Part shown: in pieces, positions 13,634-64,000 of the stretch
How positions within the stretch are numbered: position 1 is the stretch's first letter
Layout of the letters: each line of letters opens with the position of its first letter
Source of the DNA: Oscillospiraceae bacterium
Lineage (GTDB): Bacteria > Bacillota > Clostridia > Oscillospirales > Acutalibacteraceae
Direction: 5' to 3'
DNA length: 64,000 bases
Assembly (NCBI GenBank): GCA_902769255.1
Contig: CACXOM010000004.1
Coordinates: 5,100-69,099, forward strand
Translations under genes and position numbers: made by a program
Notes under the pieces: generated by a model
Databases searched by the model: none
The model's input: only the letters and a program-made list of their open reading frames with translations
Told to the model about the DNA's origin: nothing

Positions 13634-14164
13634 ATGCCTGATGAAAAGAATGTAAAAGAACAGCCTGAAACAGAAAATAAGGCTGATAAAAAGAAAGATA
13701 AAAAAGAGTCTAAACTTAAAAAAGAAAATGAAGAATTAAAACAACAGTTGCAAGAGCAAAAAGATTTATTGCTTCGCACCGCCGCAGAGTTTGACAATTA
13801 TAAAAAAAGAGAAACGGCGGCCAAAGAAAAATTATCATCTTATGTTAAAGGTGAAACGCTTAAAGCAATTTTGCCGTCTCTTGATAACATTAACAGAGCG
13901 CTTTCGGCTGATGAAAATTCTGCTGATTATGTAAAAGGCGTTTCAATGACAATTAAAGGTCTTTTAGACGCTCTTAAAAAAGAAGGACTTGAAGAAATTA
14001 ACCCGAAAGGTGAAGCTTTTGATGTAAATCTTCATATGGCGGTTATGAAAGTTGAAGATGAAAACGCAAAAGAAAACGAAATTACAAAAGTTTTGCAAAC
14101 AGGTTATAAATTAGGCGATACAGTTCTTCGTCCCGCAATGGTTGAAGTCGCAAATTGCGATTAA
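13634..14164 (+). CDS. grpE: nucleotide exchange factor GrpE
   Basis: Lys/Glu-rich N-terminus, LRTAAEFDNYKKR signature, C-terminal GYKLGDTVLRPAMV. Confidence 0.9.
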   Translation: MPDEKNVKEQPETENKADKKKDKKESKLKKENEELKQQLQEQKDLLLRTAAEFDNYKKRETAAKEKLSSYVKGETLKAILPSLDNINRALSADENSADYVKGVSMTIKGLLDALKKEGLEEINPKGEAFDVNLHMAVMKVEDENAKENEITKVLQTGYKLGDTVLRPAMVEVANCD

Positions 14165-14205
14165 TTATAAATTAAAAGTTATTTTTGAAAGGAAATGAAT
14201 ATATT

Positions 14206-16032
14206 ATGGGTAAAATTATAGGTATTGACTTAGGTACAACAAACTCTTGTGTAGCAGTTATTGAAGGTGGCGAGCCGGTTGTAATTGCAAACGCAGAGGG
14301 CGCAAGAACAACCCCTTCGGTTGTTGCTTTTTCAAAAAACGGTGAAAGAATGGTAGGTCAGGTTGCAAAACGTCAGGCTATTACCAATCCTGATAAAACT
14401 ATTTCTTCTATTAAAAGAGAAATGGGTACTGACTACAAGGTAACAATTGACGATAAATCTTATACTCCGCAGGAAATTTCGGCAATTATTTTGCAAAAAT
14501 TAAAAGCAGATGCCGAAAGTTATCTCGGCGGTGCAGTAACTGAAGCAGTTATCACTGTTCCTGCTTATTTTACAGACGCTCAACGTCAGGCTACTAAAGA
14601 TGCCGGCAAAATTGCAGGTCTTGATGTTAAAAGAATTATCAACGAGCCTACCGCAGCTGCTCTCGCTTACGGTGTAGATAAAGAATCTGACCAAAAAGTT
14701 ATGGTTTACGACCTCGGTGGCGGTACATTCGATGTTTCGATTATCGAAATGGGCGACGGCGTTCAAGAAGTTCTTGCAACCGCAGGTAACAACCGTCTTG
14801 GCGGCGATGACTTTGATAAAAGAATTATGGATTATATTCTCGCTGATTTCAAATCAAAAGAGGGTATTGATTTATCGGCTGATAAAATGGCAATGCAAAG
14901 AATTAAAGATGCTGCCGAAAAAGCAAAAATCGACCTTTCGGGTATGACTACCGCTGAAATCAACTTACCGTTTATTTCGGCAGATGCAACAGGCCCGAAA
15001 CATTACGAAACAACTTTAACAAGAGCAAAATTCAACGAACTTACTGCTGATTTGGTTGAATCTACAATGGGTCCTGTTCGTCAGGCTTTAAAAGATTCGG
15101 GTCTTTCGGCAAGTGAAATTAACAAAGTTCTTATGGTTGGCGGTTCTTCGAGAATTCCGGCTGTAAACGATGCTATTAAAGAATTTTTGGGCAAAGAGCC
15201 GTTTAAAGGCATTAACCCTGATGAATGTGTTGCAGTAGGTGCAGCAATTCAAGGCGGTGTTTTAGGCGGTGACGTTAAAGGTTTGTTACTTCTTGATGTT
15301 ACTCCGCTTTCACTCGGTATCGAAACAATGGGCGGTGTTTCAACAAAAGTTATCGAAAGAAACACAACAATTCCTACTAAAAAATCACAAATTTTCTCAA
15401 CTGCAGCAGACGGTCAAACTTCGGTTGAAGTTCATGTTTTGCAAGGTGAGCGTGAATTTGCTAAAGATAATAAAACTCTCGGCGTATTCCATCTTGACGG
15501 AATTGCCCCTGCTCCAAGAGGTGTACCGCAGATTGAAGTTACTTTTGATATTGATGCTAACGGTATCGTTCATGTATCGGCAAAAGATAAAGGCACAGGC
15601 AAAGAGCAGGCTATTACAATTACTTCTAACACTTCAATGAGCAAAGAAGATATTGAAAAAGCCGTAAACGAAGCAGAACAATATGCCGAAGAAGATAAAA
15701 AACGCAGAGAAGCAGTTGATGTTCGCAACAATGCCGACCAAATGGTTTATCAGGCAGAAAAAACATTAACAGATGCAGGCGATAAAATTTCGGAAGACGA
15801 AAAAGCACCGGTTAAAACTGCAATTGACGCATTGAAAGAGGCGTTAAAAGGCGAAGATACAGAAGCAATTAAAACAAAACAAGAAGAATTGCAAAAAGCG
15901 CTTTATGCCGTTGCTGAAAAACTTTATCAGCAAGCTCCGCAACCAGATGCTGCAGGCGCTCAACCTAATGCTGAAGGTGCAGAAGGCGACAATGTTTATG
16001 ACGCTGAATTTACCGAAACAGACGAAAACTAA
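14206..16032 (+). CDS. dnaK: molecular chaperone DnaK (Hsp70)
   Basis: [23 protein letters not shown] and [13 protein letters not shown] Hsp70 signatures. ATG at 14206 ([10 protein letters not shown]). Confidence 0.97.
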
Positions 16033-16111
16033 TTTTAAAAAAACAATTTTTTAGCGGTAACTCTCCGAAAAATTCGGGGAGTTATACTGCTGAAATGTGA
16101 AAGGATAATTT

Positions 16112-17263
16112 ATGGCTGACAAGCGTGATTATTATGAAGTCTTGGGCGTTGACAAAAGCGCTGATGACGCTACAATTAAAAAGGCTTATCGTAATTTAGC
16201 CAAAAAATATCACCCCGATTTAAACCCCGATAATAAAGAGGCGGAAAAGAAGTTTAAAGAGGTAAACGAGGCTTATGAAGTTCTTTCCGACTCGGAGAAA
16301 AAAGCAAGATACGACCAATTCGGCCACGCAGGCGTTGACCCGAATTTTGGCGCAGGCGCAGGCGGCGGCTCGCCTTTTGGCAGCGGTTTTGGCGGATTTG
16401 GAGATTTCGGTGATATTTTTTCAGACCTTTTCGGCGGCGGTTTCGGCGGTTCAAGAAGGTCTAATCCTAATGCTCCGAGAAGGGGCGCAGACACAGCCGC
16501 AAGAGTTACAATTTCTTTTGAAGAGGCGGCTAAAGGTTGCAAAAAAACTATTAAAGTTACTCATATTGAAAACTGTTCCGCCTGTGGCGGCAGCGGTGCA
16601 AAAGCCGGAACAAGCCCAAAAACCTGTCCTAACTGTCACGGCTCGGGTCAAGAGGTTGTTCAGCAAAGAACGCCTTTCGGCGTAATGCAAACCCAGCGTC
16701 CTTGTTCACATTGCGGCGGCAGAGGTAAAATAATTGAGCAACCTTGCGAAAAATGTTCGGGCAAAGGTAAAGTCAGAATTACAAGAGAACAAACTGTAAA
16801 CATTCCTGCAGGTATTGACGATATGCAGGTGTTAAATGTTCGCGGTCAGGGCGATGCAGGCACAAACGGTGGTCCTGCGGGCGACCTTAGAATTGAGGTT
16901 AATGTTCGTCCGCACCCGATTTTTGAGCGTGACGGATTTGATGTTTATGTTGAAGTTCCGGTAACATTTGTGCAAGCCTCGTTAGGCGCGGAAATTTCTG
17001 TTCCGACACTCGACGGCAAGGTTAAATTTAAAATTCACGAGGGTACTCAGTCGGGCGATGAATTTAAACTCGCAGGCAAAGGCATTAAACGCATTAACTC
17101 TTCAGGCAGAGGAAATCAATATGTTAAAATTAATGTTGAAATTCCTCGAAATTTGTCGAAAGAGCAAAAAGAAATTTTAAAACAGTTTGACAGCAAGTCG
17201 AACGACAAGAATTATAAAAAAAGAAAAACATTTTTTGACAAATTAAAAGATATGTTTGAATAA
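16112..17263 (+). CDS. dnaJ: molecular chaperone DnaJ
   Basis: J-domain with HPD (KKYHPDLNP), G/F-rich region, four CxxCxGxG zinc-finger repeats. Confidence 0.97.
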
Positions 17264-18747: not shown

Positions 18748-19701
18748 ATGAATACTGATAAAAGAAAAGTCGTATTAGTCGGAACAGGTATGGTAGGTAT
18801 GAGTTTCGCTTATGCGTTGGTAAACCAAGGCGGAATTTGCAATGAACTTGTGCTGATTGATGTAAACCACGAGCGAGCAGTAGGCGAGGCGATGGACTTA
18901 AACCACGGGCTTGCTTTTGCAAAATCAAATATGAGAATTTACGCAGGCGATTATACCGATTGCAAAGATGCTGATATTGTTGTAATTGCCGCAGGTGTTG
19001 CGCAAAAACAGGGTGAGACCAGACTTGACCTTTTGCAAAGAAATACCGAAGTTTTCCGCTCGATTATTACCCCTGTTGTAAAATCGGGATTTGACGGAAT
19101 TTTTTTGGTAGCAACTAATCCTGTTGATATTATGACAAGGGTTACTTATGAACTTTCACGCTTTGGCGCAGCGAGAGTTATAGGCACGGGAACTTCGCTT
19201 GATACCGCAAGACTTCGCTATTTATTGGGCGATTATTTCACCGTTGACCCGAAAAATATTCACGCTTATGTTATAGGTGAACACGGCGACAGCGAGTTTG
19301 TTCCTTTTTCGCAGGTTATGCTTGCAACAAAGCATATTTCGGAAATTTTAGACGATGAGCGCAATAGTTTTTGCATTGACGGAATGAATGAAATTGAAGA
19401 GCAGGTAAGAACTTCAGCTTATAAAATTATTGATGCAAAAAGAGCCACTTATTACGGAATAGGTATGGCGATAACCAGAATTGTTAAAGCGATTTTGGGT
19501 GATGAAAACAGCGTTTTGACTGTTTCGGCAAAACTTTCGGGCGAATACGGCGCAAAAGATGTGTTTATAGGCGTACCTTGCATTATCGGGCGAAACGGTG
19601 TTAAAGAGGTGCTTGAACTTTCGTTGACTGATGATGAAAAAGAAAAATTTACCAACTCAAAAAATGTTTTAAACGACAGTTTTGAGGGCTTAAAATTGTA
19701 A
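18748..19701 (+). CDS. ldh: L-lactate dehydrogenase
   Basis: VVLVGTGMVGMSFAY, IGEHGDSEF and TSLDTARLR motifs. Length 317 aa. Confidence 0.9.
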   Translation: MNTDKRKVVLVGTGMVGMSFAYALVNQGGICNELVLIDVNHERAVGEAMDLNHGLAFAKSNMRIYAGDYTDCKDADIVVIAAGVAQKQGETRLDLLQRNTEVFRSIITPVVKSGFDGIFLVATNPVDIMTRVTYELSRFGAARVIGTGTSLDTARLRYLLGDYFTVDPKNIHAYVIGEHGDSEFVPFSQVMLATKHISEILDDERNSFCIDGMNEIEEQVRTSAYKIIDAKRATYYGIGMAITRIVKAILGDENSVLTVSAKLSGEYGAKDVFIGVPCIIGRNGVKEVLELSLTDDEKEKFTNSKNVLNDSFEGLKL

Positions 19702-19715
19702 TAGAAGTTGACATA

Positions 19716-19748
19716 AAACAAGCAGTTTTTGAAACTGCTTGTTTTTTA
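19716..19748 (+). terminator. intrinsic terminator after ldh
   Basis: aaacaagcagttt-ttg-aaactgcttgttt followed by a T-run. Confidence 0.8.
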
Positions 19749-19822
19749 ATGCAAAATTTTTAAAAAATTGTCAAAAATTAAACGAAAATCTAAATTTTAC
19801 AGTAGATTTTTTGTTTGTCTTA

Positions 19823-19831
19823 TGTTATAAT
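19823..19831 (+). promoter_or_regulatory. extended -10 element (TGtTATAAT), candidate promoter of the hydrogenase operon
   Basis: TG at 19823-19824 and TATAAT at 19826-19831. The -35 is weak (TAGATT). Lies about 75 nt upstream of the hydC start. Confidence 0.4.
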
Positions 19832-19906
19832 TATCGTAGCATTATGTGCAATTTTGTATATCATAATGAAAATTTAATAATTTTGAAAGTGAGGATTAAT
19901 TATCTT

Positions 19907-20401
19907 ATGAAAAAGCGTAAGGGTAATTTACCTTTTAGAGGCACACCCGAACAAGAAGCACAGTTAATGAAAGTAATTGAAAAACATAAGGGTCAAGACG
20001 GCGCTCTTATGCCTGTAATGCAGGAAGCACAGGAAATTTACGGTTACTTACCTGTTGAAGTTCAACAAATGATTGCTAAAGGCTTAGACGTTCCGGTTGA
20101 AAAAGTTTACGGCGTTGCAACTTTTTATTCTCAGTTTGCTTTGTCACCAAAAGGCGAGTATAAAATTTCTGTCTGTCTTGGTACTGCTTGCTATGTTAAA
20201 GGCGCACAAGATGTTCTTGACAGAATTACTCAAATTCTCGGAATCGGCGCTGATGAATGTACACCTGACGGTAAATTTTCAATTGAGGCTTGCCGTTGCA
20301 TAGGTGCTTGCGGTTTGGCACCGGTTATGACTGTAAACGATGAAGTTTACGGCAGACTTCAAAAAACCGATGTAGATGATATTCTTAAAAAATATATGTA
20401 A
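19907..20401 (+). CDS. hydC: NuoE-like [2Fe-2S] subunit of NADH-dependent (electron-bifurcating type) [FeFe]-hydrogenase (HydC)
   Basis: Thioredoxin-like 2Fe-2S motif set: ISVCLGTACYVKG...CRCIGACGLAPV. ATG at 19907 follows GTGAGGA. The upstream 56 codons of the track ORF have no coding character. Confidence 0.85.
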   Translation: MKKRKGNLPFRGTPEQEAQLMKVIEKHKGQDGALMPVMQEAQEIYGYLPVEVQQMIAKGLDVPVEKVYGVATFYSQFALSPKGEYKISVCLGTACYVKGAQDVLDRITQILGIGADECTPDGKFSIEACRCIGACGLAPVMTVNDEVYGRLQKTDVDDILKKYM

Positions 20402-20434: not shown

Positions 20435-20794
20435 ATGAAGATTAGAGATATAAAAGAACTTTTAAACGCCGAAGTTTTGTGCTGTGATGAGGAACTTGAA
20501 AAAGAGGTTAACTCCGCTTGCGGTTCCGATATGATGAGCGATGTTTTGGCTTATGTAAAAGACCAAGCTGTTTTGCTTACAGGCCTTTTAAATCCACAGG
20601 TTATTCGCACAGCCGAAATGATGGATATGGTTTGCATTGTTTTTGTAAGAAGTAAAAAGCCTACCAAAGAGATGGTTGAACTCGCAAAACAACTTGATAT
20701 AGTTGTGCTTGCAACAAACCTTCGTATGTATGAGGCTTGCGGTCGTCTTTATTCAAAAGGACTCGGTACTTTAAAAGAAAACGGTGAAGCATAA
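20435..20794 (+). CDS. DRTGG-domain protein (small single-domain regulator)
   Basis: About 120 aa with SDMMSDVLAY...VLLTGLLNPQVIRTAEMMDM...VVLAT, which I recognise as the DRTGG-type fold seen next to hydrogenase genes. GGAG sits 8 nt before the ATG. Confidence 0.6.
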   Translation: MKIRDIKELLNAEVLCCDEELEKEVNSACGSDMMSDVLAYVKDQAVLLTGLLNPQVIRTAEMMDMVCIVFVRSKKPTKEMVELAKQLDIVVLATNLRMYEACGRLYSKGLGTLKENGEA

Positions 20795-21219
20795 TGAGCG
20801 AAGCAATTAATTTTCATTATGTGGTTGACGGTGATGATTTCACCTCGGCAGGTGAGGCAAGCGTTGACATTAAAAGAAAACTTCGTCAATTAGGCGTTGA
20901 CCCCGCTATTATTCGCAGAGTTTCAATTGCTATGTATGAAGGCGAGGTTAATATGGTAATCCACGCCGAAGGCGGTACGGTTGATGTTAATGTTTATGAA
21001 GATAAAATTGAAATGATTTTGTCTGACGAAGGCCCCGGCATTGCAAATGTTGAACTTGCTATGAAAGCAGGTTTTTCCACCGCTCCCGATTATGTTCGTT
21101 CACTCGGGTTTGGTGCCGGAATGGGTTTGCCGAATATGAAAAGTTATACCGACGGTATGGAGATTGATACAAAAATCGGTGTCGGTACCACAATCACAAT
21201 GGTAGTAAACCTTAAATAA
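20794..21219 (+). CDS. GHKL-type ATPase of anti-sigma-factor / serine-kinase size class (RsbW/SpoIIAB-like)
   Basis: 141 aa. Has EGEVNMVIHA (N-box-like), DEGPGI (G1) and GFGAGMGLPNM (G2). Its start overlaps the previous stop (TAATG). Confidence 0.65.
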   Translation: MSEAINFHYVVDGDDFTSAGEASVDIKRKLRQLGVDPAIIRRVSIAMYEGEVNMVIHAEGGTVDVNVYEDKIEMILSDEGPGIANVELAMKAGFSTAPDYVRSLGFGAGMGLPNMKSYTDGMEIDTKIGVGTTITMVVNLK

Positions 21220-21257
21220 AGTTTTATATCAAAAATCACAGTGAAGGTGCACAGTTT

Positions 21258-22541
21258 ATGAGTAATTTCATACACTCTGTTTCTCTGAATGTTTCAAAAT
21301 GCAAAGGATGTACCTCTTGTTTGCGTCGTTGCCCGACCGAAGCCATAAGAATTAAAGAAGGCCACGCCGTTATTGATTCTGAAAGATGTATTGATTGCGG
21401 TGAGTGCATAAGGGCTTGTCCGCATAAGGCTAAAAAAGCGGTTTGCAGTCCTTTTGAAAAAATCAATGAGTTTAAATATAAGATTGCTATGCCTGCGCCG
21501 ACTCTTTACGGTCAGTTTAATAATCTTGACGATATTGACTATTGCTTGCAAGGTCTTTTGGATATCGGGTTTGACGATGTTTACGAGGTTTCTTATGCCG
21601 CCGAATTTATTTCGGCATATACAAGGCTTTACCTTAAAAAAGAGGATATTAAAAAACCGATAATTTCATCTGCCTGTCCTGTTATAGTAAGGCTAATAAA
21701 TTTGAGGTATCCCTCTTTGTGCGACAATATTATGCCAATTATTCCGCCTATGGAACTTGCGGCAATATTTGCTCGCCAAAAGGCAAAAAAGAAACATCCC
21801 GAACTTAAAGATGAAGATATAGGTGTTTGTTTTATATCGCCTTGTCCGGGTAAATCTTCTTATGTTGTGAATGATGAACTCGGAAAAAAAGAAAATGTTG
21901 ATGTTGTACTTGCAATGAACGATATTTATTTTCGTTTGCTTGCGGTAATGAAAGGTGAAAAAACACCGAAGCCCCTTTCAAAATCAGGCTTGTTAGGTAT
22001 CGGCTGGGCGGTTTCGGGCGGCGAGTCTTCGGCGCTATTTAGCGATAAATATTTAGCTGCTGACGGACTTGAAAATGTTATTCAGGTTTTGGAAGAAATT
22101 GATAACGGCAAATTGCCGGAACTCGATTTTGTCGAACTAAACGCTTGCAACAGCGGTTGCGTAGGCGGTATTCTTACCGTTGAAAACCCCTATATTGCAA
22201 AAGCGAAAATGCAGTCGCTTCGAAAATATTTACCTGTTTCGGGCGCTCACCCTGATGATAAAATACCAAACGAAGCTTATTTTGAAAATGTAAATTGTTT
22301 TAAACCTATTCAACAGTTTTCTGACAATATGCAAGAGTCAATGAGGCTTATGAGCGAAATTCAAACAGTTTGCTCTAACTTACCCGAAATTGACTGCGGT
22401 TCCTGCGGAGCACCTACTTGTCTTGCTTTCGCAGAAGATGTAGTCTTAAAAGGGGCCGACATTAACAATTGCATTATCAATATGAAAGACTATCTTTTGC
22501 AAAAACTTGAAGAGAAAAAGGACGAGAGTTATGACAGTTAA
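21258..22541 (+). CDS. [FeFe]-hydrogenase-like protein with 2x[4Fe-4S] N-terminal domain, degenerate H-cluster motifs and extra C-terminal Cys motif (putative sensory type)
   Basis: CKGCTSCLRRCP and CIDCGECIRACP ferredoxin motifs. H-domain motifs SSACPV (canonical TSCCPxW), ISPCPGK (canonical MPCxxKxxE) and ELNACNSGCVGG (canonical ExMxCxxGCxxGGG). C-terminal CGSCGAPTC. Confidence 0.75.
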   Translation: MSNFIHSVSLNVSKCKGCTSCLRRCPTEAIRIKEGHAVIDSERCIDCGECIRACPHKAKKAVCSPFEKINEFKYKIAMPAPTLYGQFNNLDDIDYCLQGLLDIGFDDVYEVSYAAEFISAYTRLYLKKEDIKKPIISSACPVIVRLINLRYPSLCDNIMPIIPPMELAAIFARQKAKKKHPELKDEDIGVCFISPCPGKSSYVVNDELGKKENVDVVLAMNDIYFRLLAVMKGEKTPKPLSKSGLLGIGWAVSGGESSALFSDKYLAADGLENVIQVLEEIDNGKLPELDFVELNACNSGCVGGILTVENPYIAKAKMQSLRKYLPVSGAHPDDKIPNEAYFENVNCFKPIQQFSDNMQESMRLMSEIQTVCSNLPEIDCGSCGAPTCLAFAEDVVLKGADINNCIINMKDYLLQKLEEKKDESYDS

Positions 22542-22857
22542 AGAACTTCTTGAATTAGAAAAATTTGAGGCGGTTAATATTGCTGATGACTCCCGAAAAA
22601 TTATCGGCGGTTACTGCGGTGATTTGCTCAGTTGGGTAATGGGCAGAGCCGAAGAAAATAATGTTTTTGTTACCATTATGGTTAATGTTAATGTTATTGC
22701 GGTCGCATCGCTGATAAATGTTTCGTGTGTGGTTATATGTGAAAACGCTGAACTTTCAGACGAACTTATAACCGCTGCAAAGCAAAAAGGTATTAATTTA
22801 ATAAGAACACCGCTTGCCTCGTTTGAGGCTTGCGCTTACCTGTCAAATTTAATATAA
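22531..22857 (+). CDS. DRTGG-domain protein (second copy)
   Basis: About 108 aa with GDLLSWVMGRA...VFVTIMVNVNVIAVASL...INLIRT, the same layout as 20435-20794. Overlaps the preceding gene by 11 nt. Confidence 0.55.
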   Translation: MTVKELLELEKFEAVNIADDSRKIIGGYCGDLLSWVMGRAEENNVFVTIMVNVNVIAVASLINVSCVVICENAELSDELITAAKQKGINLIRTPLASFEACAYLSNLI

Positions 22858-23585
22858 TGCGTAAATATTATTATGATTTGCATATTCACTCGTGCTTGTC
22901 GCCCTGCGGTGACAACGATATGACGGTGAATAATATTGCAGGAATGGGAAAAATTGCAGGGTTTCAAATTATGGCGCTTACCGACCATAACTGTGTTAAA
23001 AATCTGCCTGCTTTCTTTAGCGCTTGCGAAAATTACGGCATTATTGCTATTGGCGGAATGGAACTTACCACCGCTGAAGATATTCATATGATTTGTCTTT
23101 TCGATTCGCTCAATAAAGCAATGCTTTTCGGCGAAGAGGTTGAAAAAAGATTAATTAAGGTGAAAAACAAACCCGAAATTTTCGGCGAGCAGTTAATTTT
23201 AGATAAGGATGATAATGTAATCGGCAACGAAGAATGTTTGCTTATTAACGCAACAGATTTATCGTTGCAAGAGGGTTATGATTTGTGCCAAAAATTTGGC
23301 GGTGTCGCTTATCCTGCTCATATTGACCGTGACTCAAACGGAATTATAGCGGTTTTGGGTGATTTTCCCGAAAGCCCCGAATTTTCCTGCGTTGAGTTTT
23401 ACGATTTTGAAAAAAAGTCGGAATACAGAAAAAGGTTTCCTATTCTTAATAATAAAATAATAATTCAAAGTTCAGATGCGCATTATCTTGATAAAATTCC
23501 TGATGCAAAAAATTATTTTGAGTTTGACGAGAATTTATCGCCAGATGAGGTAAGAAAAAGTGTTATTAGTTATTTAAAGGGTTAA
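22857..23585 (+). CDS. PHP-domain metal-dependent phosphoesterase
   Basis: YYDLHIHSCLSPCGD, ALTDHN and YPAHIDR are PHP His/Asp metal-ligand motifs. Start overlaps the previous stop (TAATG). Confidence 0.75.
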   Translation: MRKYYYDLHIHSCLSPCGDNDMTVNNIAGMGKIAGFQIMALTDHNCVKNLPAFFSACENYGIIAIGGMELTTAEDIHMICLFDSLNKAMLFGEEVEKRLIKVKNKPEIFGEQLILDKDDNVIGNEECLLINATDLSLQEGYDLCQKFGGVAYPAHIDRDSNGIIAVLGDFPESPEFSCVEFYDFEKKSEYRKRFPILNNKIIIQSSDAHYLDKIPDAKNYFEFDENLSPDEVRKSVISYLKG

Positions 23586-23589
23586 TATT

Positions 23590-24141
23590 ATGAAAGAGTT
23601 ATCGCTTAACATTCTTGATATTGCTGAAAATTCGCTTAAAGCGGGCGCAACAAAGGTTGAAATTCTTTTAACCGAAGAGAATAACACTTTAACAATTGAA
23701 ATTATTGATAACGGTTGCGGAATGAGCAAAAAAACGCTTGAAAATGTAATAAATCCTTTTTATACAACAAGAACAACCCGAAAAGTCGGGCTTGGTATTC
23801 CTTTTTTCAAAGAGGCTGCCGAGCAAACGGGGGGAAGTTTTGAAATTACTTCGGTAGAGAGTAGCGTTGATAGTAAAAAATGCGGAACAAAGGTAAAAAC
23901 TTTGTTTTATACCGACAGTATTGACTTTACGCCAATCGGTGATATTGTTTCGACAATAACCACTTTAATTCACGGCTCGCCTGATGTTGATTTTGTTTTT
24001 AAACACAAAAAAGAAAACGGCGAAGTCAGTCTTGATACAAGAGAGATTAAAGCGGTTTTGGGAGATGATATACCGTTGAACAGCATTGAGGTTATTGAGT
24101 TTATTAAAAACAGCCTTAACGCTGAATATAACAGTTTATAA
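23590..24141 (+). CDS. GHKL-type ATPase (histidine-kinase-like ATP-binding protein without sensor or DHp domain)
   Basis: NILDIAENSLKAGA (N box), IDNGCGM (G1), GLGIPFF (G2). 183 aa, no TM segment and no phospho-acceptor His domain. Confidence 0.7.
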   Translation: MKELSLNILDIAENSLKAGATKVEILLTEENNTLTIEIIDNGCGMSKKTLENVINPFYTTRTTRKVGLGIPFFKEAAEQTGGSFEITSVESSVDSKKCGTKVKTLFYTDSIDFTPIGDIVSTITTLIHGSPDVDFVFKHKKENGEVSLDTREIKAVLGDDIPLNSIEVIEFIKNSLNAEYNSL

Positions 24142-24172
24142 AAAATTACAAATAACGAAAGGACAGAAAATT

Positions 24173-24535
24173 ATGAAATCATTAGCAGAACTTGCGGCAA
24201 TAAGAGATAAAATGAAAAACTCGGTTGCTATGCGTGATGGAGCAAGCGGAATTCGCGTAGTAGTAGGAATGGCTACTTGCGGTATCGCAGCAGGCGCTCG
24301 TCCTGTTCTTAACACTCTTGTTGAAGAAGTCGCAAAAGAAAATCTTTCAGACAAAGTAACCGTAACTCAAACAGGTTGCATAGGCATTTGCCAATATGAA
24401 CCCGTTGTTGAAGTTTACGAAGAAGGCAAAGATAAAGTTACTTATGTTAAAATGGATGTTGACAAAGCAAAAGAAGTTGTTGAACAACATCTTAAAGGTG
24501 GCAAGGTTGTTGCCAAATATACAATAGGAAAATAA
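24173..24535 (+). CDS. thioredoxin-like [2Fe-2S] ferredoxin-domain protein (HydD-like)
   Basis: GMATCGIAAGA...TGCIGICQYEP motif. ATG at 24173 follows AAAGGA. Confidence 0.7.
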   Translation: MKSLAELAAIRDKMKNSVAMRDGASGIRVVVGMATCGIAAGARPVLNTLVEEVAKENLSDKVTVTQTGCIGICQYEPVVEVYEEGKDKVTYVKMDVDKAKEVVEQHLKGGKVVAKYTIGK

Positions 24536-24554: not shown

Positions 24555-26345
24555 ATGTATCGTGCCCATGTGTTGATTTGCGGCGGTACCGGATGTACTT
24601 CTTCCGGCTCGGTTGCAATACAAGAAACTCTGGCTAAACAACTTAAAGAAAAAGGCCTTGAAGAAGAGGTAAAAATCGTTCAAACAGGTTGTTTCGGACT
24701 TTGCGCTTTAGGTCCTGTAATGATTGTTTACCCCGAAGGTACTTTTTATAGCCGAGTAACCCCTGAAGATGTTGAAGAAATTGTTGAAGAACATCTTTTG
24801 AAAGGTAGAATTGTTGAGCGTTTGGTTTATTCTGACACACAAGAAGAAAACGCTACTGAAACTTCGCTTAATGATACCACTTTCTACAAAAAACAAAAAA
24901 GAGTTGCTCTTCGTAACTGCGGTGTTATTAACCCTGAAGTTATTGATGAATACATCGGTGAAGGCGGTTATCAGGCTCTCGGTAAAGTGCTTACCGAAAT
25001 GACTCCTGAAGAAGTTATTAAAACTATTCTTGATTCTGGTCTTCGTGGCCGTGGTGGCGGCGGATTCCCGACAGGTTTGAAATGGAAATTGGCTGCAGGT
25101 AACCAAGCAGACCAAAAATATGTCTGTTGTAATGCCGACGAAGGCGACCCGGGTGCATTTATGGACCGTTCAGTTCTTGAAGGCGACCCTCATGTTGTTC
25201 TCGAAGCAATGGCAATTGCAGGTTACGCTATCGGCGCTTCACAAGGTTACATTTATGTTCGTGCTGAATATCCTATCGCCGTTCATCGTTTGGAAATTGC
25301 TATTAAACAAGCAAGAGAATACGGTCTTTTAGGTAAAAATATTTTCGATACAGGATTTGATTTTGATATTGATATTCGTCTTGGTGCAGGCGCATTCGTT
25401 TGCGGTGAGGAAACTGCTCTTATGACCTCAATCGAAGGCAACCGTGGTGAGCCAAGACCTCGTCCTCCTTATCCTGCTGTTAAAGGTTTGTTCGGTAAAC
25501 CGACTATTCTTAACAACGTTGAAACTTACGCAAACATTCCGCAAATTATCTTAAACGGCGCTGACTGGTTCGCTTCAATGGGTACCGAAAAATCAAAAGG
25601 TACTAAAGTATTTGCGCTCGGCGGTAAAATCAACAACACAGGTTTGGTTGAGGTTCCTATGGGAACAACCTTGCGTGAAGTTATTGAAGAAATCGGTGGC
25701 GGTATTCCTAACGGTAAAAAATTCAAAGCCGCTCAAACAGGTGGTCCTTCAGGAGGTTGTATTCCTGCTGAACATCTTGATATTCCGATTGATTATGATA
25801 ACTTAATTTCTATCGGTTCAATGATGGGTTCAGGCGGACTTATCGTTATGGACGAAGACAACTGTATGGTTGATATCGCTAAATTCTTCCTTGAATTTAC
25901 TGTTGATGAATCTTGCGGTAAATGTACTCCTTGCCGTGTAGGTACAAGAAGACTTCTTGAAATTCTTGAAAAAATCACAAGCGGTAAAGGTACTATGGAA
26001 GATATTGACAGACTCGAAGAACTTGCTGCTTACATAAAAGCAAATTCACTTTGCGGTCTCGGTCAAACTGCTCCAAACCCTGTTTTGTCAACACTTCGTT
26101 ATTTTAAAGATGAATATATCGCTCACGTTGTTGATAAAAAATGTCCTGCAGGCGTTTGTAAAGACTTGTTACAATATACAATTATTGAAGATAAATGTAA
26201 AGGTTGCTCGGCATGTTCGAGAAAATGTCCTGTTGGCGCAATTTCAGGCGAAATTAAGAGTCCGTTTGTTATTGACCAAAATAAATGTATTAAATGTGGC
26301 GCTTGTATTGAAACTTGTAAGTTTGGCGCTATTGAGAAAAAATAA
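24555..26345 (+). CDS. hydB: NuoF-like NADH/FMN-binding subunit of [FeFe]-hydrogenase (HydB)
   Basis: N-terminal 2Fe-2S Trx-like domain, GLRGRGGGGFPTGLKW (FMN), CGKCTPCRVG (N3-type 4Fe-4S), and C-terminal 2x CxxCxxCxxxCP ferredoxin motifs. Confidence 0.92.
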   Translation: MYRAHVLICGGTGCTSSGSVAIQETLAKQLKEKGLEEEVKIVQTGCFGLCALGPVMIVYPEGTFYSRVTPEDVEEIVEEHLLKGRIVERLVYSDTQEENATETSLNDTTFYKKQKRVALRNCGVINPEVIDEYIGEGGYQALGKVLTEMTPEEVIKTILDSGLRGRGGGGFPTGLKWKLAAGNQADQKYVCCNADEGDPGAFMDRSVLEGDPHVVLEAMAIAGYAIGASQGYIYVRAEYPIAVHRLEIAIKQAREYGLLGKNIFDTGFDFDIDIRLGAGAFVCGEETALMTSIEGNRGEPRPRPPYPAVKGLFGKPTILNNVETYANIPQIILNGADWFASMGTEKSKGTKVFALGGKINNTGLVEVPMGTTLREVIEEIGGGIPNGKKFKAAQTGGPSGGCIPAEHLDIPIDYDNLISIGSMMGSGGLIVMDEDNCMVDIAKFFLEFTVDESCGKCTPCRVGTRRLLEILEKITSGKGTMEDIDRLEELAAYIKANSLCGLGQTAPNPVLSTLRYFKDEYIAHVVDKKCPAGVCKDLLQYTIIEDKCKGCSACSRKCPVGAISGEIKSPFVIDQNKCIKCGACIETCKFGAIEKK

Positions 26346-26360
26346 GGGAGGAAAAGACTG

Positions 26361-28109
26361 ATGGTAAATTTAAAAATTAACGGCATCGGGGTGCAGGTTG
26401 AAGACGGCGCAACCGTTCTTGAAGCGGCTCGTAAAGCAGGTATCGAAATTCCTACCCTTTGCTACATGAAAGAAATCAACGAAATCGGCGCTTGCCGTAT
26501 TTGTATGGTTGAAGTACAAGAAATGCGTGGCGACCAACTCGGACCGGCAAGAATGGTTACCGCTTGCGTTTATCCTGCAAGCGAGGGTATGGTTGTTCAA
26601 ACAAATACCGAAAAAGTTAGAAAAGCAAGAAAAACTACTCTTGAAATGATGCTTTCAACTCACAACCGTAAATGTTTGTCTTGCGTTCGTTCAGGTAACT
26701 GCGAATTGCAAACACTTTGCTATGAATACGGTATTGATAATGATGAGCAGTTTGACGGCGTTTTGCCTGAAAATATTTATGATGACAGCGCTCTTCATAT
26801 GATTAGAGATAATTCAAAATGTATTCTTTGCCGTCGTTGCGTTGCTGTCTGTAAAGAGCAGGAAGTTGGCGTAATTGGCGCAAACGACAGAGGTTTTGAT
26901 ACTCATATCGGTTGTACTTATGATAAAACTTTGGCTGAGGTTGACTGTATTTCTTGCGGTCAATGTATCGTAAACTGCCCGACAGGCGCTTTGAAAGAGC
27001 GTGACGATACTCAAAAAGTTTATGACGCTATCGCTGATGAAACTAAAACAGTTATCGTTCAAACCGCTCCTGCTGTTCGTGCAGGTCTTGGCGAAGAATT
27101 CGGCTTGCCAATCGGCACAGATGTTGAAGGCAAAATGGTAGCCGCTTTAAGAAGACTCGGTTTTGATAAGGTATTTGATACTGATACAGCCGCAGACTTC
27201 ACAATTATGGAGGAGGCTAACGAACTTATCGACCGTGTAACAAACGGCGGTGTTCTTCCTATGATTACATCTTGCTCACCAGGTTGGATTAAATATTGCG
27301 AATATCATTATCCTGATTTCATTCCTAACCTTTCAACTTGTAAATCACCTCAAAATATGTTCGGCGGAATTATTAAATCTTGGTATGCTGAGAAAAACGG
27401 CTTAAATCCTGATGACATTGTTGTTGTTTCGGTTATGCCTTGTACCGCTAAAAAGTTTGAGGTTCAGCGTGAAGAGCTTAGAAAAGATGTTGATATTTCT
27501 ATCACTACTCGTGAACTCGCTCGTATGATTAAACGTGCCGGTATTCAGTTTAACTTGCTTGCCGATGAAACATTTGATTCACCGCTCGGTGAGGCAACAG
27601 GTGCTGCTGTTATCTTCGGTGCAACAGGCGGTGTTATGGAAGCTGCTCTTAGAACTGCTTATGAAGTTATCACAAAATCAACTTTGGAAGATGTTGATTT
27701 TACCGCTGTTCGTGGTACAGAGCCTGTTAAAGTTTCTGAAATCAAAGTTGGCGACTTAAATGTTAAAGTCGGCGTAGCTTCAGGCGCAAAAGCTGCTAAA
27801 GAGTTGCTTGAGCGAGTAAAAGCTGGCGAAGAGTTTACATTTATCGAAATTATGGGTTGCCCAGGCGGTTGTGTAAACGGTGGCGGTCAGCCTATTCAAC
27901 CTACATCTGTTCGTCAAACAGTTGACATTAAAGCAGAGCGTGCAAAAGCGCTTTACAATAATGATGCTGCTAAATCAATCAGAAAATCTCACGAAAATCC
28001 GTTTGTAAAAGCAGTTTATGAAGAATACTTCGGTGCACCTAACTCACACAAGGCTCACGAAGTTCTCCATACAACTTATGTTGACCGTTCAAAAGATGTA
28101 ATTATGTAA
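26361..28109 (+). CDS. hydA: [FeFe]-hydrogenase catalytic subunit, M3 architecture (HydA, NADH-dependent/bifurcating type)
   Basis: N-terminal 2Fe-2S (CYMKEINEIGACRIC), His-ligated cluster motif (HNRKCLSC...C), two 4Fe-4S motifs. H-domain motifs TSCSPGW, VMPCTAKKFE and EIMGCPGGCVNGGGQP. Confidence 0.92.
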   Translation: MVNLKINGIGVQVEDGATVLEAARKAGIEIPTLCYMKEINEIGACRICMVEVQEMRGDQLGPARMVTACVYPASEGMVVQTNTEKVRKARKTTLEMMLSTHNRKCLSCVRSGNCELQTLCYEYGIDNDEQFDGVLPENIYDDSALHMIRDNSKCILCRRCVAVCKEQEVGVIGANDRGFDTHIGCTYDKTLAEVDCISCGQCIVNCPTGALKERDDTQKVYDAIADETKTVIVQTAPAVRAGLGEEFGLPIGTDVEGKMVAALRRLGFDKVFDTDTAADFTIMEEANELIDRVTNGGVLPMITSCSPGWIKYCEYHYPDFIPNLSTCKSPQNMFGGIIKSWYAEKNGLNPDDIVVVSVMPCTAKKFEVQREELRKDVDISITTRELARMIKRAGIQFNLLADETFDSPLGEATGAAVIFGATGGVMEAALRTAYEVITKSTLEDVDFTAVRGTEPVKVSEIKVGDLNVKVGVASGAKAAKELLERVKAGEEFTFIEIMGCPGGCVNGGGQPIQPTSVRQTVDIKAERAKALYNNDAAKSIRKSHENPFVKAVYEEYFGAPNSHKAHEVLHTTYVDRSKDVIM

Positions 28110-28952: not shown

Positions 28953-29120
28953 TTTTCACTCCCATAAAAAATACTCTACTATATATAATAGAATAAAACC
29001 GCAAAAAAATCAAGTGTAATTTTAAATGTTTAGAATAAAATGTAAATATATTATTAAAAGTATGGAATTTTGCTTGTATTTGTGTTATACTGTTAAAAAA
29101 TCGATTAGGAGTTGGACTTG

Positions 29121-30068
29121 ATGAAAAAAATAATTGCGTTTTTTGCTGTTTTGGTTTTGGTTTTGTCAATGTCGGGGATTAGTTCTTTTGCCGACAATGT
29201 TACAACTTTGTCTTTAAAAGATACCACTTGTGCGCCGGGTGATACAGTCGGCTTGACGGTTGAATTGAATAATAACAAAGGCCTTTGGGGCATGCTTTTT
29301 TCGGTTGGATTTGACCCTGACTGTTTTGCTTTTTGCGAAGCCAGAAATAATAATGATGTATTTTCAACCGATGCTTATATGATAGGTCCGAGCGATTTTT
29401 CGCAAGGAAAAGTTAATGTGCTTATTACTCCTTCGGAGCTTACCAAAAATAATACAAAAAACGGTAAAGTCTGCACAATATTTTTTAAAGTCGGTAATGA
29501 TATGCCGGAAGGCGAATATAATTTTAATTTAACTTTAAGCGAAAAAGATATTTGTGATGTCAACGGTAATAAAGTTGAAGTTAACGCAGTTTCGGGAAAG
29601 GTTAAAATTGATAAATCTTACAAACCGAAAACTACGCAAAATACAGCAAAAGCCGGTGAGGTTCTTGCAACAACCGCAAGCGGTAAAAATGCCGATTCAA
29701 AAGGCGAAAACCAAACCGCTCATTTTGAAAATATAACAGAAGTCAGCAATGTTTATGTAACTAATAAAAAAGGCGAAACACTAACAAATAAAAACGGCAA
29801 AAAAATTACTAAAAAGGTTTTTGTTGATAAAGATACCGGCGAAATAATCGGTGATGTAGACAGCGAAAAAAATGAGAAAAGTGATGAAAAAATCGAAGTA
29901 ATTACTGATGAGAACGGCAAAAAAATTACTAATAAGAATGACAGCACAGATGAAGAAAACGGTTTTGATTATTCGGTTATAGTTTTAATTGCTATTTTCG
30001 GTGCAGTTATTATATGTTGCGTTGTGGTAGCGGTTATAAAAACAAAAAAGAAAAAACAAGATAAGTAA
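29121..30068 (+). CDS. cohesin-like domain protein with K/N/T-rich linker and C-terminal membrane anchor
   Basis: Signal peptide, then CAPGDTVGLTVELNNNKGLWGMLFSVGFDP...GEYNFNLT...VSGKVKI, resembling a cohesin/CBM-type beta sandwich. C-terminal TM VIVLIAIFGAVIICCVVVAVI-KTKKKK. ATG at 29121 lies 9 nt after AGGAG. Confidence 0.5.
   Translation: MKKIIAFFAVLVLVLSMSGISSFADNVTTLSLKDTTCAPGDTVGLTVELNNNKGLWGMLFSVGFDPDCFAFCEARNNNDVFSTDAYMIGPSDFSQGKVNVLITPSELTKNNTKNGKVCTIFFKVGNDMPEGEYNFNLTLSEKDICDVNGNKVEVNAVSGKVKIDKSYKPKTTQNTAKAGEVLATTASGKNADSKGENQTAHFENITEVSNVYVTNKKGETLTNKNGKKITKKVFVDKDTGEIIGDVDSEKNEKSDEKIEVITDENGKKITNKNDSTDEENGFDYSVIVLIAIFGAVIICCVVVAVIKTKKKKQDK
29793..29811 (+). repeat. 19-nt perfect direct repeat (aacggcaaaaaaattacta), second copy at 29913-29931
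   Basis: The copies are 120 nt apart and in frame, encoding NGKKIT in the linker of the cohesin-like protein. Confidence 0.8.
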
Positions 30069-33262: not shown

Positions 33263-33460
33263 GACTTTTTTTATATTTTTTAAATAAAGATAAATTTCCG
33301 CCGAAAAAGCGAAAAAATACCGTTTTTATGCATTTTGTTTGAATAAAAAATGCATAAATATAAAAAATATCAAAAACACGGCGCAATATGTCAAAAAAAC
33401 TTGAAAAAACAAATAAAAAATGTTATTATAAAATGAATAGTTATTTAAGGAGAAATTTTG

Positions 33461-35473: not shown

Positions 35474-35489
35474 AAAGGGCGTGAAGTTT

Positions 35490-51743: not shown

Positions 51744-52811
51744 ATGAAAAAAGTATTGCTTATATCACATTACCCTCCTCCTGCAGGTGGAATTGCTACT
51801 TGGACAAAAAGGATATTATCAATTGGACTTCCAGATGGTTGGGAGATTGACCATGTGAATTCAAACACAATTAATGGTCGTGACCCATTTGAAAATACTA
51901 ATAGAAACATTAAGGATGAATATATAAGAAGTAAAAATATTTGGAAAAAAGAAAAAGATTTTTTGAAAAATGACAAAGATATAAAAGTAGTTCATACAAA
52001 TATTCCATGCACTATTTTTGGTATGATTAGAGAGACAGTAACAGGAATAATTGCAAAGAAATATAAAAAAAAGTTTATTCTTCATTGTCATTGTACTGTT
52101 CCGAATGTTGTAAATACTGGGTTTAAAAGATTTGTTTTTAAGATATTTTCAAAACTTTGTGATGGTATAATTGTTTTGAATAGACAATCTTATGATTTTG
52201 TTAAAGGTTTTAATGAAAAATTAGTTGTTGAAATAATACCTAATTTTGTGATGAAAGAAGAAACTAATATTAATAAACCAAAAATAATTAGAAATGAAAT
52301 TAAGAAAGTACTTTTTGTTGGAGGTGTAACCCCGGAAAAGGGTTGCGACACAATAATTCTTGCAGCTAAAAGCATTCCCAATATAGAGTTTAATTTAGTT
52401 GGTGCAGTTTCTGATGAAATTAAAAAAATGCCAAAAACAAACAATGTGGTTTTACATGGCGTTCAAAACTCTGACTATGTAAAGAATCAACTTGATGATA
52501 ATGATGTGTTTTTGTTTTTATCAAGATATTTTGGCGAAGGCTTTTCTTGCGCATTAACCGAGGCTATGGCAGCTGGATTACCTTGTATAGTAACTGATTG
52601 GGCAGCGAATGCTGATATGATTGATTATGGAAAAGGTGGGATTATTATTGACCAACAAGCGCCTAATCAATTGATTGAAGCAATTAATCAATTAGCTGAT
52701 GCGAGTAAAAGAAAAGAATTATCAGATTTTAATGTTAAAAGAGTTAAAGAAAATTATATTGAGAGTATAGTTTTAAAAAAATATACTGATTTTTATGACA
52801 TAATAGCATAA
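51744..52811 (+). CDS. glycosyltransferase family 4 (GT-B)
   Basis: C-terminal EGFSCALTEAMAAGLPCIVTD (E-x7-E region). ATG at 51744 lies 6 nt after AGGTG. Confidence 0.8.
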   Translation: MKKVLLISHYPPPAGGIATWTKRILSIGLPDGWEIDHVNSNTINGRDPFENTNRNIKDEYIRSKNIWKKEKDFLKNDKDIKVVHTNIPCTIFGMIRETVTGIIAKKYKKKFILHCHCTVPNVVNTGFKRFVFKIFSKLCDGIIVLNRQSYDFVKGFNEKLVVEIIPNFVMKEETNINKPKIIRNEIKKVLFVGGVTPEKGCDTIILAAKSIPNIEFNLVGAVSDEIKKMPKTNNVVLHGVQNSDYVKNQLDDNDVFLFLSRYFGEGFSCALTEAMAAGLPCIVTDWAANADMIDYGKGGIIIDQQAPNQLIEAINQLADASKRKELSDFNVKRVKENYIESIVLKKYTDFYDIIA

Positions 52812-52823
52812 AAAGGAAAAAAT

Positions 52824-53894: not shown

Positions 53895-54107
53895 GTGATT
53901 TAAATAATATTATCAAAAAACCATTCAAATGGTAGTATAGATATTGCTTCAATACGCAATTTTTTCCTTTTTATATATTTTTGTGCAATATCCGGCTGTC
54001 AGACAAATGAAGGATTTGATTATGTATTTTCATTATCTTCATTTGTATTTTTTGTAGGTATTAGTTTTATAATTCAAATTAATGAGGGAAGTTTTAAATT
54101 TAATAAC

Positions 54108-56064: not shown

Positions 56065-56085
56065 AGAATATTATAGAGGTGCAAC

Positions 56086-57039: not shown

Positions 57040-57083
57040 TAAATTGGTTTTATAATAATGTAAAAATATAGAAAGGTATATTT

Positions 57084-57902: not shown

Positions 57903-57922
57903 TTAGATTAGATGAGAATAGT

Positions 57923-58591: not shown

Positions 58592-58656
58592 GTTTTCTTT
58601 TTCATCTATAGATTATTTGTTGTTGCGAAAAGTAGTTTTAATAATGGAGGGTTTTT

Positions 58657-59574: not shown

Positions 59575-59576
59575 TT

Positions 59577-63126: not shown

Positions 63127-63137
63127 AGGATTTTTAT

Positions 63138-63908: not shown

Positions 63909-63924
63909 TAGGAGATAAAGGAAA

Positions 63925-64000
63925 ATGAATGATAAATTCAAAGGAAAAAAGTTATTAATAATGGGCGCAAACCCCGAAACTATTCCATTGGTAGAATTAG
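63925..64000 (+). CDS. partial ORF (N-terminus only), possibly an ATP-grasp enzyme
   Basis: ATG at 63925 follows GGAGATAAAGGAAA. MNDKFKGKKLLIMGANPETIPLVEL resembles the pre-ATP-grasp Rossmann start. Only 25 codons are visible. Confidence 0.3.
   Translation, partial: MNDKFKGKKLLIMGANPETIPLVEL

Follow-up and report, generated by a model that had tools for sequence, protein, structure and literature searches.

The window analysed here is a 64,000-nucleotide stretch of the genome of an Oscillospiraceae bacterium (assembly GCA_902769255.1, contig CACXOM010000004.1), and our subject is a group of genes lying inside its operon for a HydABC-type [FeFe] hydrogenase. An open reading frame (ORF) map, together with the sequence read at each junction, placed ten genes on the + strand, from hydC at 19907 to the end of hydA at 28109 (Table 1). 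The enzyme genes hydC and hydB are separated by two small DRTGG-domain proteins (DRTGG1 and DRTGG2), two ATPases of the GHKL family (GHKL141 and GHKL183), a hydrogenase-like protein (HydS), a PHP phosphoesterase and a small ferredoxin (Fdx). Five of these genes, DRTGG1, GHKL141, HydS, DRTGG2 and PHP, form a conserved cassette. The reading we favour, at a probability of about 0.45, is that they are the signalling cassette of a group D sensory hydrogenase, embedded in a HydABC(D) operon and acting on the linked enzyme.

The ten genes are closely packed. TAATG stop/start overlaps join DRTGG1 to GHKL141 (20792-20796) and DRTGG2 to PHP (22855-22859), and the HydS stop codon (22539-22541) lies past the ATG of DRTGG2 (22531), giving an overlap of 11 nucleotides. 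The remaining gaps across the operon are 33, 38, 4, 31, 19 and 15 nucleotides. An original prediction, made from the sequence by inspection, had given the same coordinates, order and strand for the ten genes, three start/stop overlaps (20794, 22531-22541 and 22857) and gaps of about 40 nucleotides or less, and the map and the junctions bear all of this out. The three overlapping junctions that were seen are of the kind expected for translational coupling. The DRTGG, GHKL, PHP and hydrogenase domain assignments, which had likewise been made by eye, all scored above the Pfam gathering thresholds.

Table 1. Genes and expression signals of the hyd operon; positions are those of the window
Feature	Positions	Strand	Description	Evidence
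Hairpin and T-run	19715-19745	+	after ldh	aaaacaagcagtttttgaaactgcttgtttttt, found by eye; a simple terminator scan did not list the hairpin
Putative promoter/leader	19746-19906	+	of the ten-gene operon	AT-rich gap, weak sigma-70-like matches
hydC	19907-20401	+	NuoE-like 2Fe-2S subunit	PF01257 E 1.8e-52
DRTGG1	20435-20794	+	119 residues, single domain	PF07085 32.6 bits (cut-off 25.2)
GHKL141	20794-21219	+	141 residues, SpoIIAB/RsbW-like ATPase, putative Ser/Thr kinase	HATPase_c_2 (PF13581) 38.3 bits
HydS	21258-22541	+	427 residues, group D (M2e) putative sensory [FeFe] hydrogenase	Fe_hyd_lg_C 102 bits, two Fer4, PF04060 48.7 bits
DRTGG2	22531-22857	+	second paralogue, faster-evolving	PF07085 25.9 bits (cut-off 25.2, marginal)
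PHP	22857-23585	+	metal-dependent phosphoesterase	PF02811 37.1 bits
GHKL183	23590-24141	+	183 residues, histidine-kinase-type ATP-binding domain and 80-residue tail	HATPase_c 52.9 bits
Fdx	24173-24535	+	thioredoxin-like 2Fe-2S ferredoxin (HydD type)	PF01257 25.0 bits; NF041612 E 2.6e-14, under its cut-off
hydB	24555-26345	+	NuoF-like FMN/NADH subunit	Complex1_51K, NADH_4Fe-4S, 2Fe-2S_thioredx, two Fer4
hydA	26361-28109	+	catalytic [FeFe] hydrogenase, NADH-dependent/bifurcating type	NF040763 864.7 bits (cut-off 765)

Gene order and a sister cassette

A scan of one genome per species with HydS returned more than 570 species with a relative, and the best 80 were examined. They belong to one clade of gut and rumen metagenome-assembled genomes (MAGs) of Acutalibacteraceae, Oscillospiraceae and Christensenellaceae, with 57-84% identity. 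As far as the contigs reach, the order hydC-DRTGG1-GHKL141-HydS-DRTGG2-PHP-GHKL183-Fdx-hydB-hydA was found in all 80; it was complete in 51, and an alternative order was found in none. The statement, in the original prediction, that similar gene sets lie beside hydABC in other Clostridia is supported by the same order in 80 species-level genomes.

Nine more divergent group D HydS loci were also examined. DRTGG1-GHKL-HydS is kept in all nine, DRTGG2-PHP in eight, and hydC-GHKL183-Fdx-hydB-hydA lies downstream of the cassette in seven (Thermoanaerobacter, C. bescii, Coprothermobacter, Caldicoprobacter, Thermoanaerobacterium and two MAGs). These seven loci have DRTGG1-GHKL-HydS-DRTGG2-PHP, a gap of 110-320 nucleotides, and then the hydC-to-hydA unit. 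One further MAG (L088:7144-17341) carries the five-gene cassette upstream of genes for a FocA-like formate channel, NuoE, NuoF and a molybdopterin formate dehydrogenase; hydrogenase, GHKL183 and small ferredoxin are all absent from this locus, where an H2 sensor may control a formate enzyme. A Peptococcaceae MAG (L084:7496-13025) has DRTGG1-GHKL-HydS only; the trio adjoins CheW and a PAS-GGDEF gene, a long way from any hydrogenase operon. Because of the arrangements in these nine loci, the cassette was limited to five genes and GHKL183 was assigned to the hydrogenase unit. Of the six-gene module originally proposed, five genes therefore stand together, whereas GHKL183 belongs with hydC to hydA. 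Likewise, the cassette is spliced into the hydC-hydB-hydA operon in the window clade, but elsewhere it lies upstream of hydC; the placement of hydC in front of the cassette is a rearrangement specific to that clade. The expected co-occurrence with trimeric or tetrameric hydrogenase operons extends far beyond the source genome, the core recurring in distant lineages.

In an exploratory mirror-tree comparison, the cassette proteins co-varied with HydS after control for hydA/hydB distance, a result to be read with the non-independence of pairwise distances in mind; the control also turns the residuals of hydA and hydB into mirror images. The evolutionary rates of DRTGG1 and GHKL141 are as low as that of the ferredoxin.

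A second view of the cassette came from DRTGG1, whose family comprises 743 clusters (50% identity) at E <= 1e-10, nearly all of them stand-alone proteins of 115-125 residues. A metagenome scan anchored on a distant DRTGG1 member gave 80 environmental loci, many ending early, which were annotated with hidden Markov models built from the cassette proteins. A SpoIIAB-like GHKL gene directly follows DRTGG1 in 68 of the 70 loci with enough downstream DNA. Two high-GC loci (L141:1385-1849; L144:2707-3153) hold a DRTGG1 homologue with no following GHKL gene, beside a molybdopterin formate-dehydrogenase-like gene.

The environmental loci include two classes. Class I loci encode a short GHKL and a separate HydS, as in the window. 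In the 48 class II loci (L090-L149, L159, L160 and L162), HydS is absent and the GHKL protein carries an N-terminal CBS pair (CBS E 7e-30, plus HATPase_c_2; for example L090:6385-7374). Among the 24 class II loci with at least 5 kb downstream, DRTGG2 was found in 23, PHP in 22, hydC in 21, GHKL183 in 22, Fdx in 20 and NuoF-like hydB in 19; most class II flanks stop before the catalytic gene, and these counts do not show the linked enzyme to be a hydrogenase. Since a second NuoE-like gene follows the NuoF gene in class II, this enzyme may differ from HydABC. The linkage of the cassette to hydC/NuoF operons is rearrangement-proof. It persists in divergent orientation (L142, L157 and L164), with GHKL183 placed between DRTGG2 and PHP (L129, L133, L136 and L149), and in L160, where the cassette is inserted between a hydB-like gene and the gene for a 1088-residue NuoG-like/FAD protein.

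Judged from these sequences, the sensor of the cassette is exchangeable, being either HydS or a CBS pair fused to the GHKL protein. This swap is the strongest evidence we can offer that the GHKL protein is the signal transducer and HydS its input, and it argues that the DRTGG and PHP genes are neither helpers nor parts of HydS. We consider it likely that the five genes serve signalling, HydS being the input and GHKL141 the transducer. The central idea of the original prediction, a signalling device built from a hydrogenase-like sensor and a SpoIIAB-sized GHKL ATPase, holds and is strengthened by the sister cassette.

The cassette proteins and the linked enzyme

HydS begins with two [4Fe-4S] ferredoxin motifs (Fer4), followed by the H-domain (Fe_hyd_lg_C). 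It is 46% identical over its full length (E 5e-132) to TamHydS of Thermoanaerobacter mathranii, the reference sequence of which was rebuilt from the codon-optimised gene in the supplement of PMC13104023. The H-cluster cysteines C140, C196, C297 and C301 are invariant in 81 orthologues. In CpI numbering, the proton-relay position Cys299 is Ala (SSA139C140P) and the Met353 position is Ser (IS194PC196); the third motif reads ELNAC297..C301, and a C-terminal cluster motif, Cx2Cx4Cx16C, is formed by C380-x2-C383-x4-C388-x16-C405. No PAS domain was found in HydS by Pfam. Under the group D/M2e criteria of Land et al. (PMC8163306), the protein is classed as a putative sensory [FeFe] hydrogenase of group D with what appears to be a complete H-cluster site. 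The H-cluster motifs are not degenerate, as the original prediction had called them; their deviations mark out a recognised subgroup, and the type enzyme of that subgroup binds an active H-cluster. HydS relatives number at least 8000 database proteins at E <= 1e-10.

The likeness to TamHydS covers the domain order, Ala at C299, Ser at M353, the C-terminal cluster motif and the lack of PAS, and the Thermoanaerobacter locus carries the same five-gene cassette. The two differ at the M497 position, which is Asn in the window protein and Leu in TamHydS, and in the window hydC precedes the cassette, making a single operon. TamHydS turns over H2 with low turnover and a sensor-like H2 affinity (PMC8163306), and an active H-cluster and H2 response have been demonstrated for TamHydS only (PMC8163306, PMC13104023). 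Its gene adjoins genes for a multimeric group A hydrogenase and a 'histidine kinase-like ATPase' (PMC8163306), so that the HydS group and its place beside a bifurcating-type hydrogenase and such an ATPase had already been noted. The DRTGG and PHP neighbours are a difference from the published account, which does not describe them. No paper linking DRTGG or PHP proteins to hydrogenases was found in the searchable literature, nor did an experimental function for the DRTGG, PHP or GHKL members turn up there, as the original prediction had supposed. The interaction partners of group D enzymes were called unknown, and their identification a critical next step, in April 2026 (PMC13104023).

The enzyme linked to the cassette was assigned from its subunits. 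HydA passes the NCBIfam model for NADH-dependent group A6 enzymes (NF040763), and the solved structure closest to its H-domain is T. kivui HydA1 (7Q4V, E 4.5e-85). With a NuoE-like HydC, a NuoF-like HydB and a group A HydA, the predicted enzyme is a HydABC(D) of the NADH-dependent/electron-bifurcating type. HydA residues ~303-309 read TSCSPGW, as against TSCCP(G/S)W in CpI and A. woodii HydA1; the same motif recurs in every orthologue checked, as well as in the solved structure of T. kivui HydA1, and seems normal for the clade.

The GHKL141 profile matches SpoIIAB over its full length (E 1.3e-9) and RsbW less strongly (1.2e-3). E49, N53, the DxGxG motif and the Gly-rich lid are invariant in every set compared, and the protein looks catalytically competent. 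It is taken as a relative and not an orthologue of SpoIIAB/RsbW, since it falls under the NCBIfam equivalog cut-offs (57 bits against 135). GHKL183 matches the ATP-binding (CA) domains of histidine kinases (E 4e-9). Pfam finds HATPase_c alone in it, at residues 8-102, with no dimerisation and histidine phosphotransfer (DHp) domain, as originally described. The possibility that GHKL183 is a minimal histidine kinase acting through the clade-invariant His139 was rejected, as His139 is not conserved in other lineages.

GHKL183 lies between hydC and Fdx in distant lineages and is absent where the cassette adjoins formate dehydrogenase; it appears to be of the A. woodii 'HydE' type, travelling with hydC-Fdx-hydB-hydA. 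It shares with A. woodii HydE (Awo_c27000) the position after hydC and before the small ferredoxin and the possession of a histidine kinase ATP-binding domain only, the difference being that in the window five extra genes separate it from hydC. HydE is not in the active A. woodii enzyme, and a possible assembly or signalling role has been suggested for it (PMC3315566).

An assembly or quality-control role could also be proposed for the cassette itself, in which the GHKL ATPases, DRTGG proteins and PHP protein insert or repair cofactors (flavin mononucleotide, Fe-S clusters) or assemble the NuoE/NuoF module, with HydS as an auxiliary redox partner. The GHKL ATPases include chaperones, and the cassette persists without HydS and is also found beside a NuoEF-formate dehydrogenase and another NuoG-like enzyme. 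However, HydS and CBS pairs are typical sensory inputs, and their exchange would be hard to explain in an assembly factor; this sensor swap makes an assembly role less likely. GHKL141 is specifically SpoIIAB-like, not Hsp90- or MutL-like, and the low turnover and H2 affinity of TamHydS (PMC8163306) are those of a sensor. We regard assembly as quite improbable.

DRTGG2 has a marginal Pfam score, but it was accepted as a DRTGG paralogue because profile-profile alignment (hhalign) matches it to DRTGG1 at 97.8% (E 1e-12). Over 73 diverse DRTGG1 representatives, S35 and T49 are the only invariant columns; in the metagenome set the selection pattern itself contains S35, so its invariance there is by design. 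Y28, D31, L33, S34, T48 and N54 of DRTGG2 are invariant in 44 of 44 environmental homologues. S35 and T49 of DRTGG1 align with S34 and T48 of DRTGG2, and little else is common to the two paralogues. The canonical D-R and the second G-G of the DRTGG motif are lost, TGLxN and RSK replacing TGGDR and TGN in the alignment. The cysteines C29 (52/80) and C102 (66/80) of DRTGG1 are well conserved and are possible redox or metal sites.

The AlphaFold2 model of DRTGG1 has a predicted local distance difference test score (pLDDT) of 92.7. Its structural relatives include AF_1212 (2IOJ, template-modelling (TM) score 0.82), the DRTGG domain of CBS-pyrophosphatase (TM ~0.7) and the N-domains of HPr kinase (HPrK/P) and of MurE/LpxD. 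No STAS or SpoIIAA structure was present among the 50 best matches in the PDB, and STAS-likeness, proposed originally in the form of DRTGG as a structural stand-in for STAS, was dismissed on this ground. In the model, helix 34-40, which comes just behind strand 27-30, is capped by S35, and strand 45-49 finishes at T49-G50. Such a geometry would fit either a phospho-acceptor or a phosphate-binding site. Long DRTGG1 representatives were also considered as Rosetta-stone fusions and were discarded, being chimeras with SPOR, ArgJ or peptidase M3 sequences or having no further domain.

The AlphaFold2 model of the PHP protein has a pLDDT of 93.7, and its metal ligands, which follow the pattern HxH, H, E, H, H, DxH, do not vary in any of the sets compared (H9, H11, H44, E69, H77, H155, D207 and H209). 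The closest proteins by fold and sequence are EndoQ, BAD_1165, the PHP domains of PolC/PolIII, RNase AM, CV1693 (a 3',5'-bisphosphate nucleotidase) and TM0559. PHP protein-tyrosine phosphatases of the CpsB/YwqE type were not the closest match in either the top 50 fold matches or the sequence matches, so the originally suggested placement of PHP in the role of PP2C finds no backing in its nearest structures. Cys17 belongs to an LSPC motif next to the HxH metal site; it too is unchanged in every set and is a possible redox or metal site. A protein 100% identical to PHP (window 22857-23582) is encoded on 14 public contigs (NCBI, Logan, ENA), so the lineage had been sequenced before as a MAG; the nearest relatives found are MAGs of Hadza-gut 'Eubacteriales' and of Acutalibacteraceae.

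In view of these structural relatives, a nucleotide-ligand switch that works without protein phosphorylation has to be taken seriously. The DRTGG proteins would then be nucleotide-binding or dimerising adaptors, the GHKL protein an ATP-driven conformational clamp, and PHP the enzyme that hydrolyses a nucleotide-type signal such as 3'-phosphoadenosine 5'-phosphate (pAp), diadenosine tetraphosphate (Ap4A) or an oligonucleotide. The neighbours of DRTGG1 include the CBS-pyrophosphatase domain and the UDP-binding N-domains of MurE and LpxD, and S35 and T49-G50 occupy the phosphate-binding position of a Rossmann-like fold. In CBS-pyrophosphatases the DRTGG domain contributes to dimer contacts, and a response to diadenosine polyphosphates is confined to the enzymes that contain this domain (bioRxiv 10.1101/2020.04.07.028951). 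The nearest PHP structures are nucleotide or nucleic-acid phosphoesterases, and the sister cassette combines the DRTGG and PHP proteins with a CBS pair. On the other hand, the closest solved relatives of GHKL141, SpoIIAB and RsbW, are true Ser kinases, the canonical D-R and second G-G are gone from the DRTGG motif, and no candidate for a messenger-synthesising enzyme is linked. On balance such a switch seems rather unlikely.

Expression signals and neighbouring genes

The hairpin and T-run at 19715-19745 follow ldh, so the hyd unit is taken to begin just before hydC. A Rex operator in front of the window hydC was considered and rejected, the matches upstream of the gene being no better than chance. 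Rex-operator-like boxes were seen in the gap between PHP and the next operon in thermophile loci (L081:11355-11522, L082:11368-11475 and L088:10383-10853); the sequences are TTGTTAAAAATTTAATAA in Thermoanaerobacter (1 mismatch), ATGTTAAATTTCTAACAA in C. bescii and TTGATAAATAATTCACAA in L088.

Transcriptional control through an unlinked regulator would give GHKL141 an anti-sigma-like part, sequestering a sigma or transcription factor until a DRTGG antagonist releases it, so that H2 adjusts the expression of hyd and fermentation genes. The SpoIIAB/RsbW-likeness of GHKL141 agrees with this, as do the effects of group C HydS systems on adhE and hydrogenase transcript levels (PMC5707799). In thermophiles, moreover, a separate promoter region with the Rex-like boxes serves the hydC operon, downstream of the cassette, and the Peptococcaceae trio stands apart from any hydrogenase. 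Against this, no sigma factor or DNA-binding gene is conserved beside the cassette in ~170 loci, where unlinked targets are possible, and the SpoIIAB residue that binds sigma and antagonist, R20, is not kept in GHKL141. The tight linkage to hydC/NuoF operons also argues for a local target. Control of transcription as the cassette's function is thus judged improbable.

Around the operon, an L-lactate dehydrogenase gene (ldh, 18748-19701) stands directly 5' with only the hairpin between, which puts two alternative NADH sinks side by side. Housekeeping genes flank the region, with grpE-dnaK-dnaJ upstream (13634-17263) and recJ, then a RelA/SpoT (p)ppGpp synthetase/hydrolase gene, downstream (33458-37667). 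A 318-residue ORF at 29112-30068 has no Pfam match. At 52000-64000 the GC content falls to 28-30% in a same-strand run of genes, among them those for a Wzy_C O-antigen-ligase-like protein (54108-55187) and UDP-galactopyranose mutase (59577-60674), and the run is probably an island for polysaccharide biosynthesis.

A proposed H2-responsive circuit

The signalling cassette that we favour can be written as a series of steps. H2 would bind the intact H-cluster of HydS and cause a conformational change, as is known for TamHydS. HydS would then control the ATPase or kinase activity of the adjacent GHKL141, which would bind, and probably phosphorylate, DRTGG1 at S35/T49 and DRTGG2 at S34/T48. PHP would reset the switch, this being the weakest step, and the output may be protein-level control of the HydC/HydB module next door, which is of the NuoE/NuoF type and to which gene linkage points. 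By the same linkage, GHKL183 is possibly an enzyme-proximal component. The parts of this scheme differ in strength. Whether the target is the linked HydABC/NuoEF enzyme or a distant regulator is about evenly balanced, with the former taken here; phosphorylation of DRTGG by GHKL141 is rather doubtful, and it is unlikely that PHP is the matching protein phosphatase.

Several observations weigh against the signalling cassette as drawn. The conserved Ser and Thr of the DRTGG proteins could be a ligand-phosphate site and not an acceptor; the fold of DRTGG1 differs from STAS, its relatives being dimerisation or nucleotide-binding domains; and the 150 best DRTGG1 representatives include no natural fusion of DRTGG with GHKL. 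The partner-binding R20 of SpoIIAB is replaced in GHKL141 by an invariant Ser. All of the nearest PHP structures act on nucleotides or nucleic acids, with no protein phosphatase among them. HydABC enzymes, once purified, show activity in the absence of the cassette proteins (PMC3315566), and in the Peptococcaceae MAG the DRTGG1-GHKL-HydS trio has no hydrogenase operon nearby.

Comparison with known systems places the cassette near several of them. GHKL141 is a full-length homologue of SpoIIAB/RsbW with intact ATP-binding motifs, and, as in the SpoIIAB-SpoIIAA-SpoIIE and RsbW-RsbV-RsbU systems, small single-domain proteins and a phosphoesterase are co-encoded. The window operon differs in that Pfam finds neither a STAS protein nor a PP2C in it, and a sigma factor gene is not linked. 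Canonical partner switching is therefore not what is encoded, as STAS and PP2C are missing; from the original analogy, the SpoIIAB-like and apparently competent kinase survives, while the likeness of the other parts does not; in the loci examined no sigma factor is linked.

The group C HydS/HfsB systems (Ruminococcus albus HydS, Thermoanaerobacterium hfsABCD) also place a sensory hydrogenase-like protein with Ser/Thr kinase/phosphatase-type genes beside a catalytic hydrogenase, and genetic evidence supports a regulatory role for them (PMC5707799, PMC11837493). They have PAS and the PP2C HfsC and control a ferredoxin-linked hydrogenase (HfsD/HydA2), whereas the window cassette, which stands beside HydABC, lacks PAS, encodes PHP where they have PP2C, and includes two DRTGG proteins as well. 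The cassette was considered as the hfsABCD operon itself and this was rejected, hfs being a group C system with a PAS-containing HydS, the PP2C HfsC and the hydrogenase HfsD.

The HoxBC-HoxJ-HoxA system of Cupriavidus/Ralstonia likewise couples a low-activity hydrogenase ([NiFe]) as H2 sensor to a kinase (PMC5707799). Its proteins are unrelated to those of the cassette, however, and its PAS histidine kinase, HoxJ, has the response regulator HoxA as target, whereas the window operon has no DHp domain or histidine kinase and no response regulator. In family II CBS-pyrophosphatase, CBS and DRTGG form an adenine-nucleotide-regulated module, and the sister cassette combines the same two domains. 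There they are fused into the regulated enzyme, while the cassette DRTGG proteins stand alone, as two paralogues, and are coupled to GHKL and PHP proteins.

A broader generalisation can be put forward at low probability. The cassette would represent a family of switch circuits with a SpoIIAB-type kinase, DRTGG acceptors in place of STAS and a PHP phosphatase in place of PP2C, and with interchangeable heads that sense H2 through a group D hydrogenase or adenine nucleotides through a CBS pair. Its members would gate flavin-based bifurcating NuoE/NuoF enzymes post-translationally in hundreds of anaerobe species, many of them gut Clostridia.

The cassette names four candidate partners for group D HydS, and the sensor swap points to the SpoIIAB-like GHKL protein as the transducer. 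Tractable carriers exist in Thermoanaerobacter, Thermoanaerobacterium and C. bescii and, according to the published group D list, in C. thermocellum. If the favoured reading is true, stand-alone DRTGG proteins and a subfamily of PHP would acquire their first function. In fermenters, syntrophs and gut Clostridia the H2/NADH/ferredoxin balance is set by HydABC, and an H2 feedback on this enzyme, post-translational or local, would have consequences for interspecies hydrogen transfer and for the engineering of ethanol or H2 yields.

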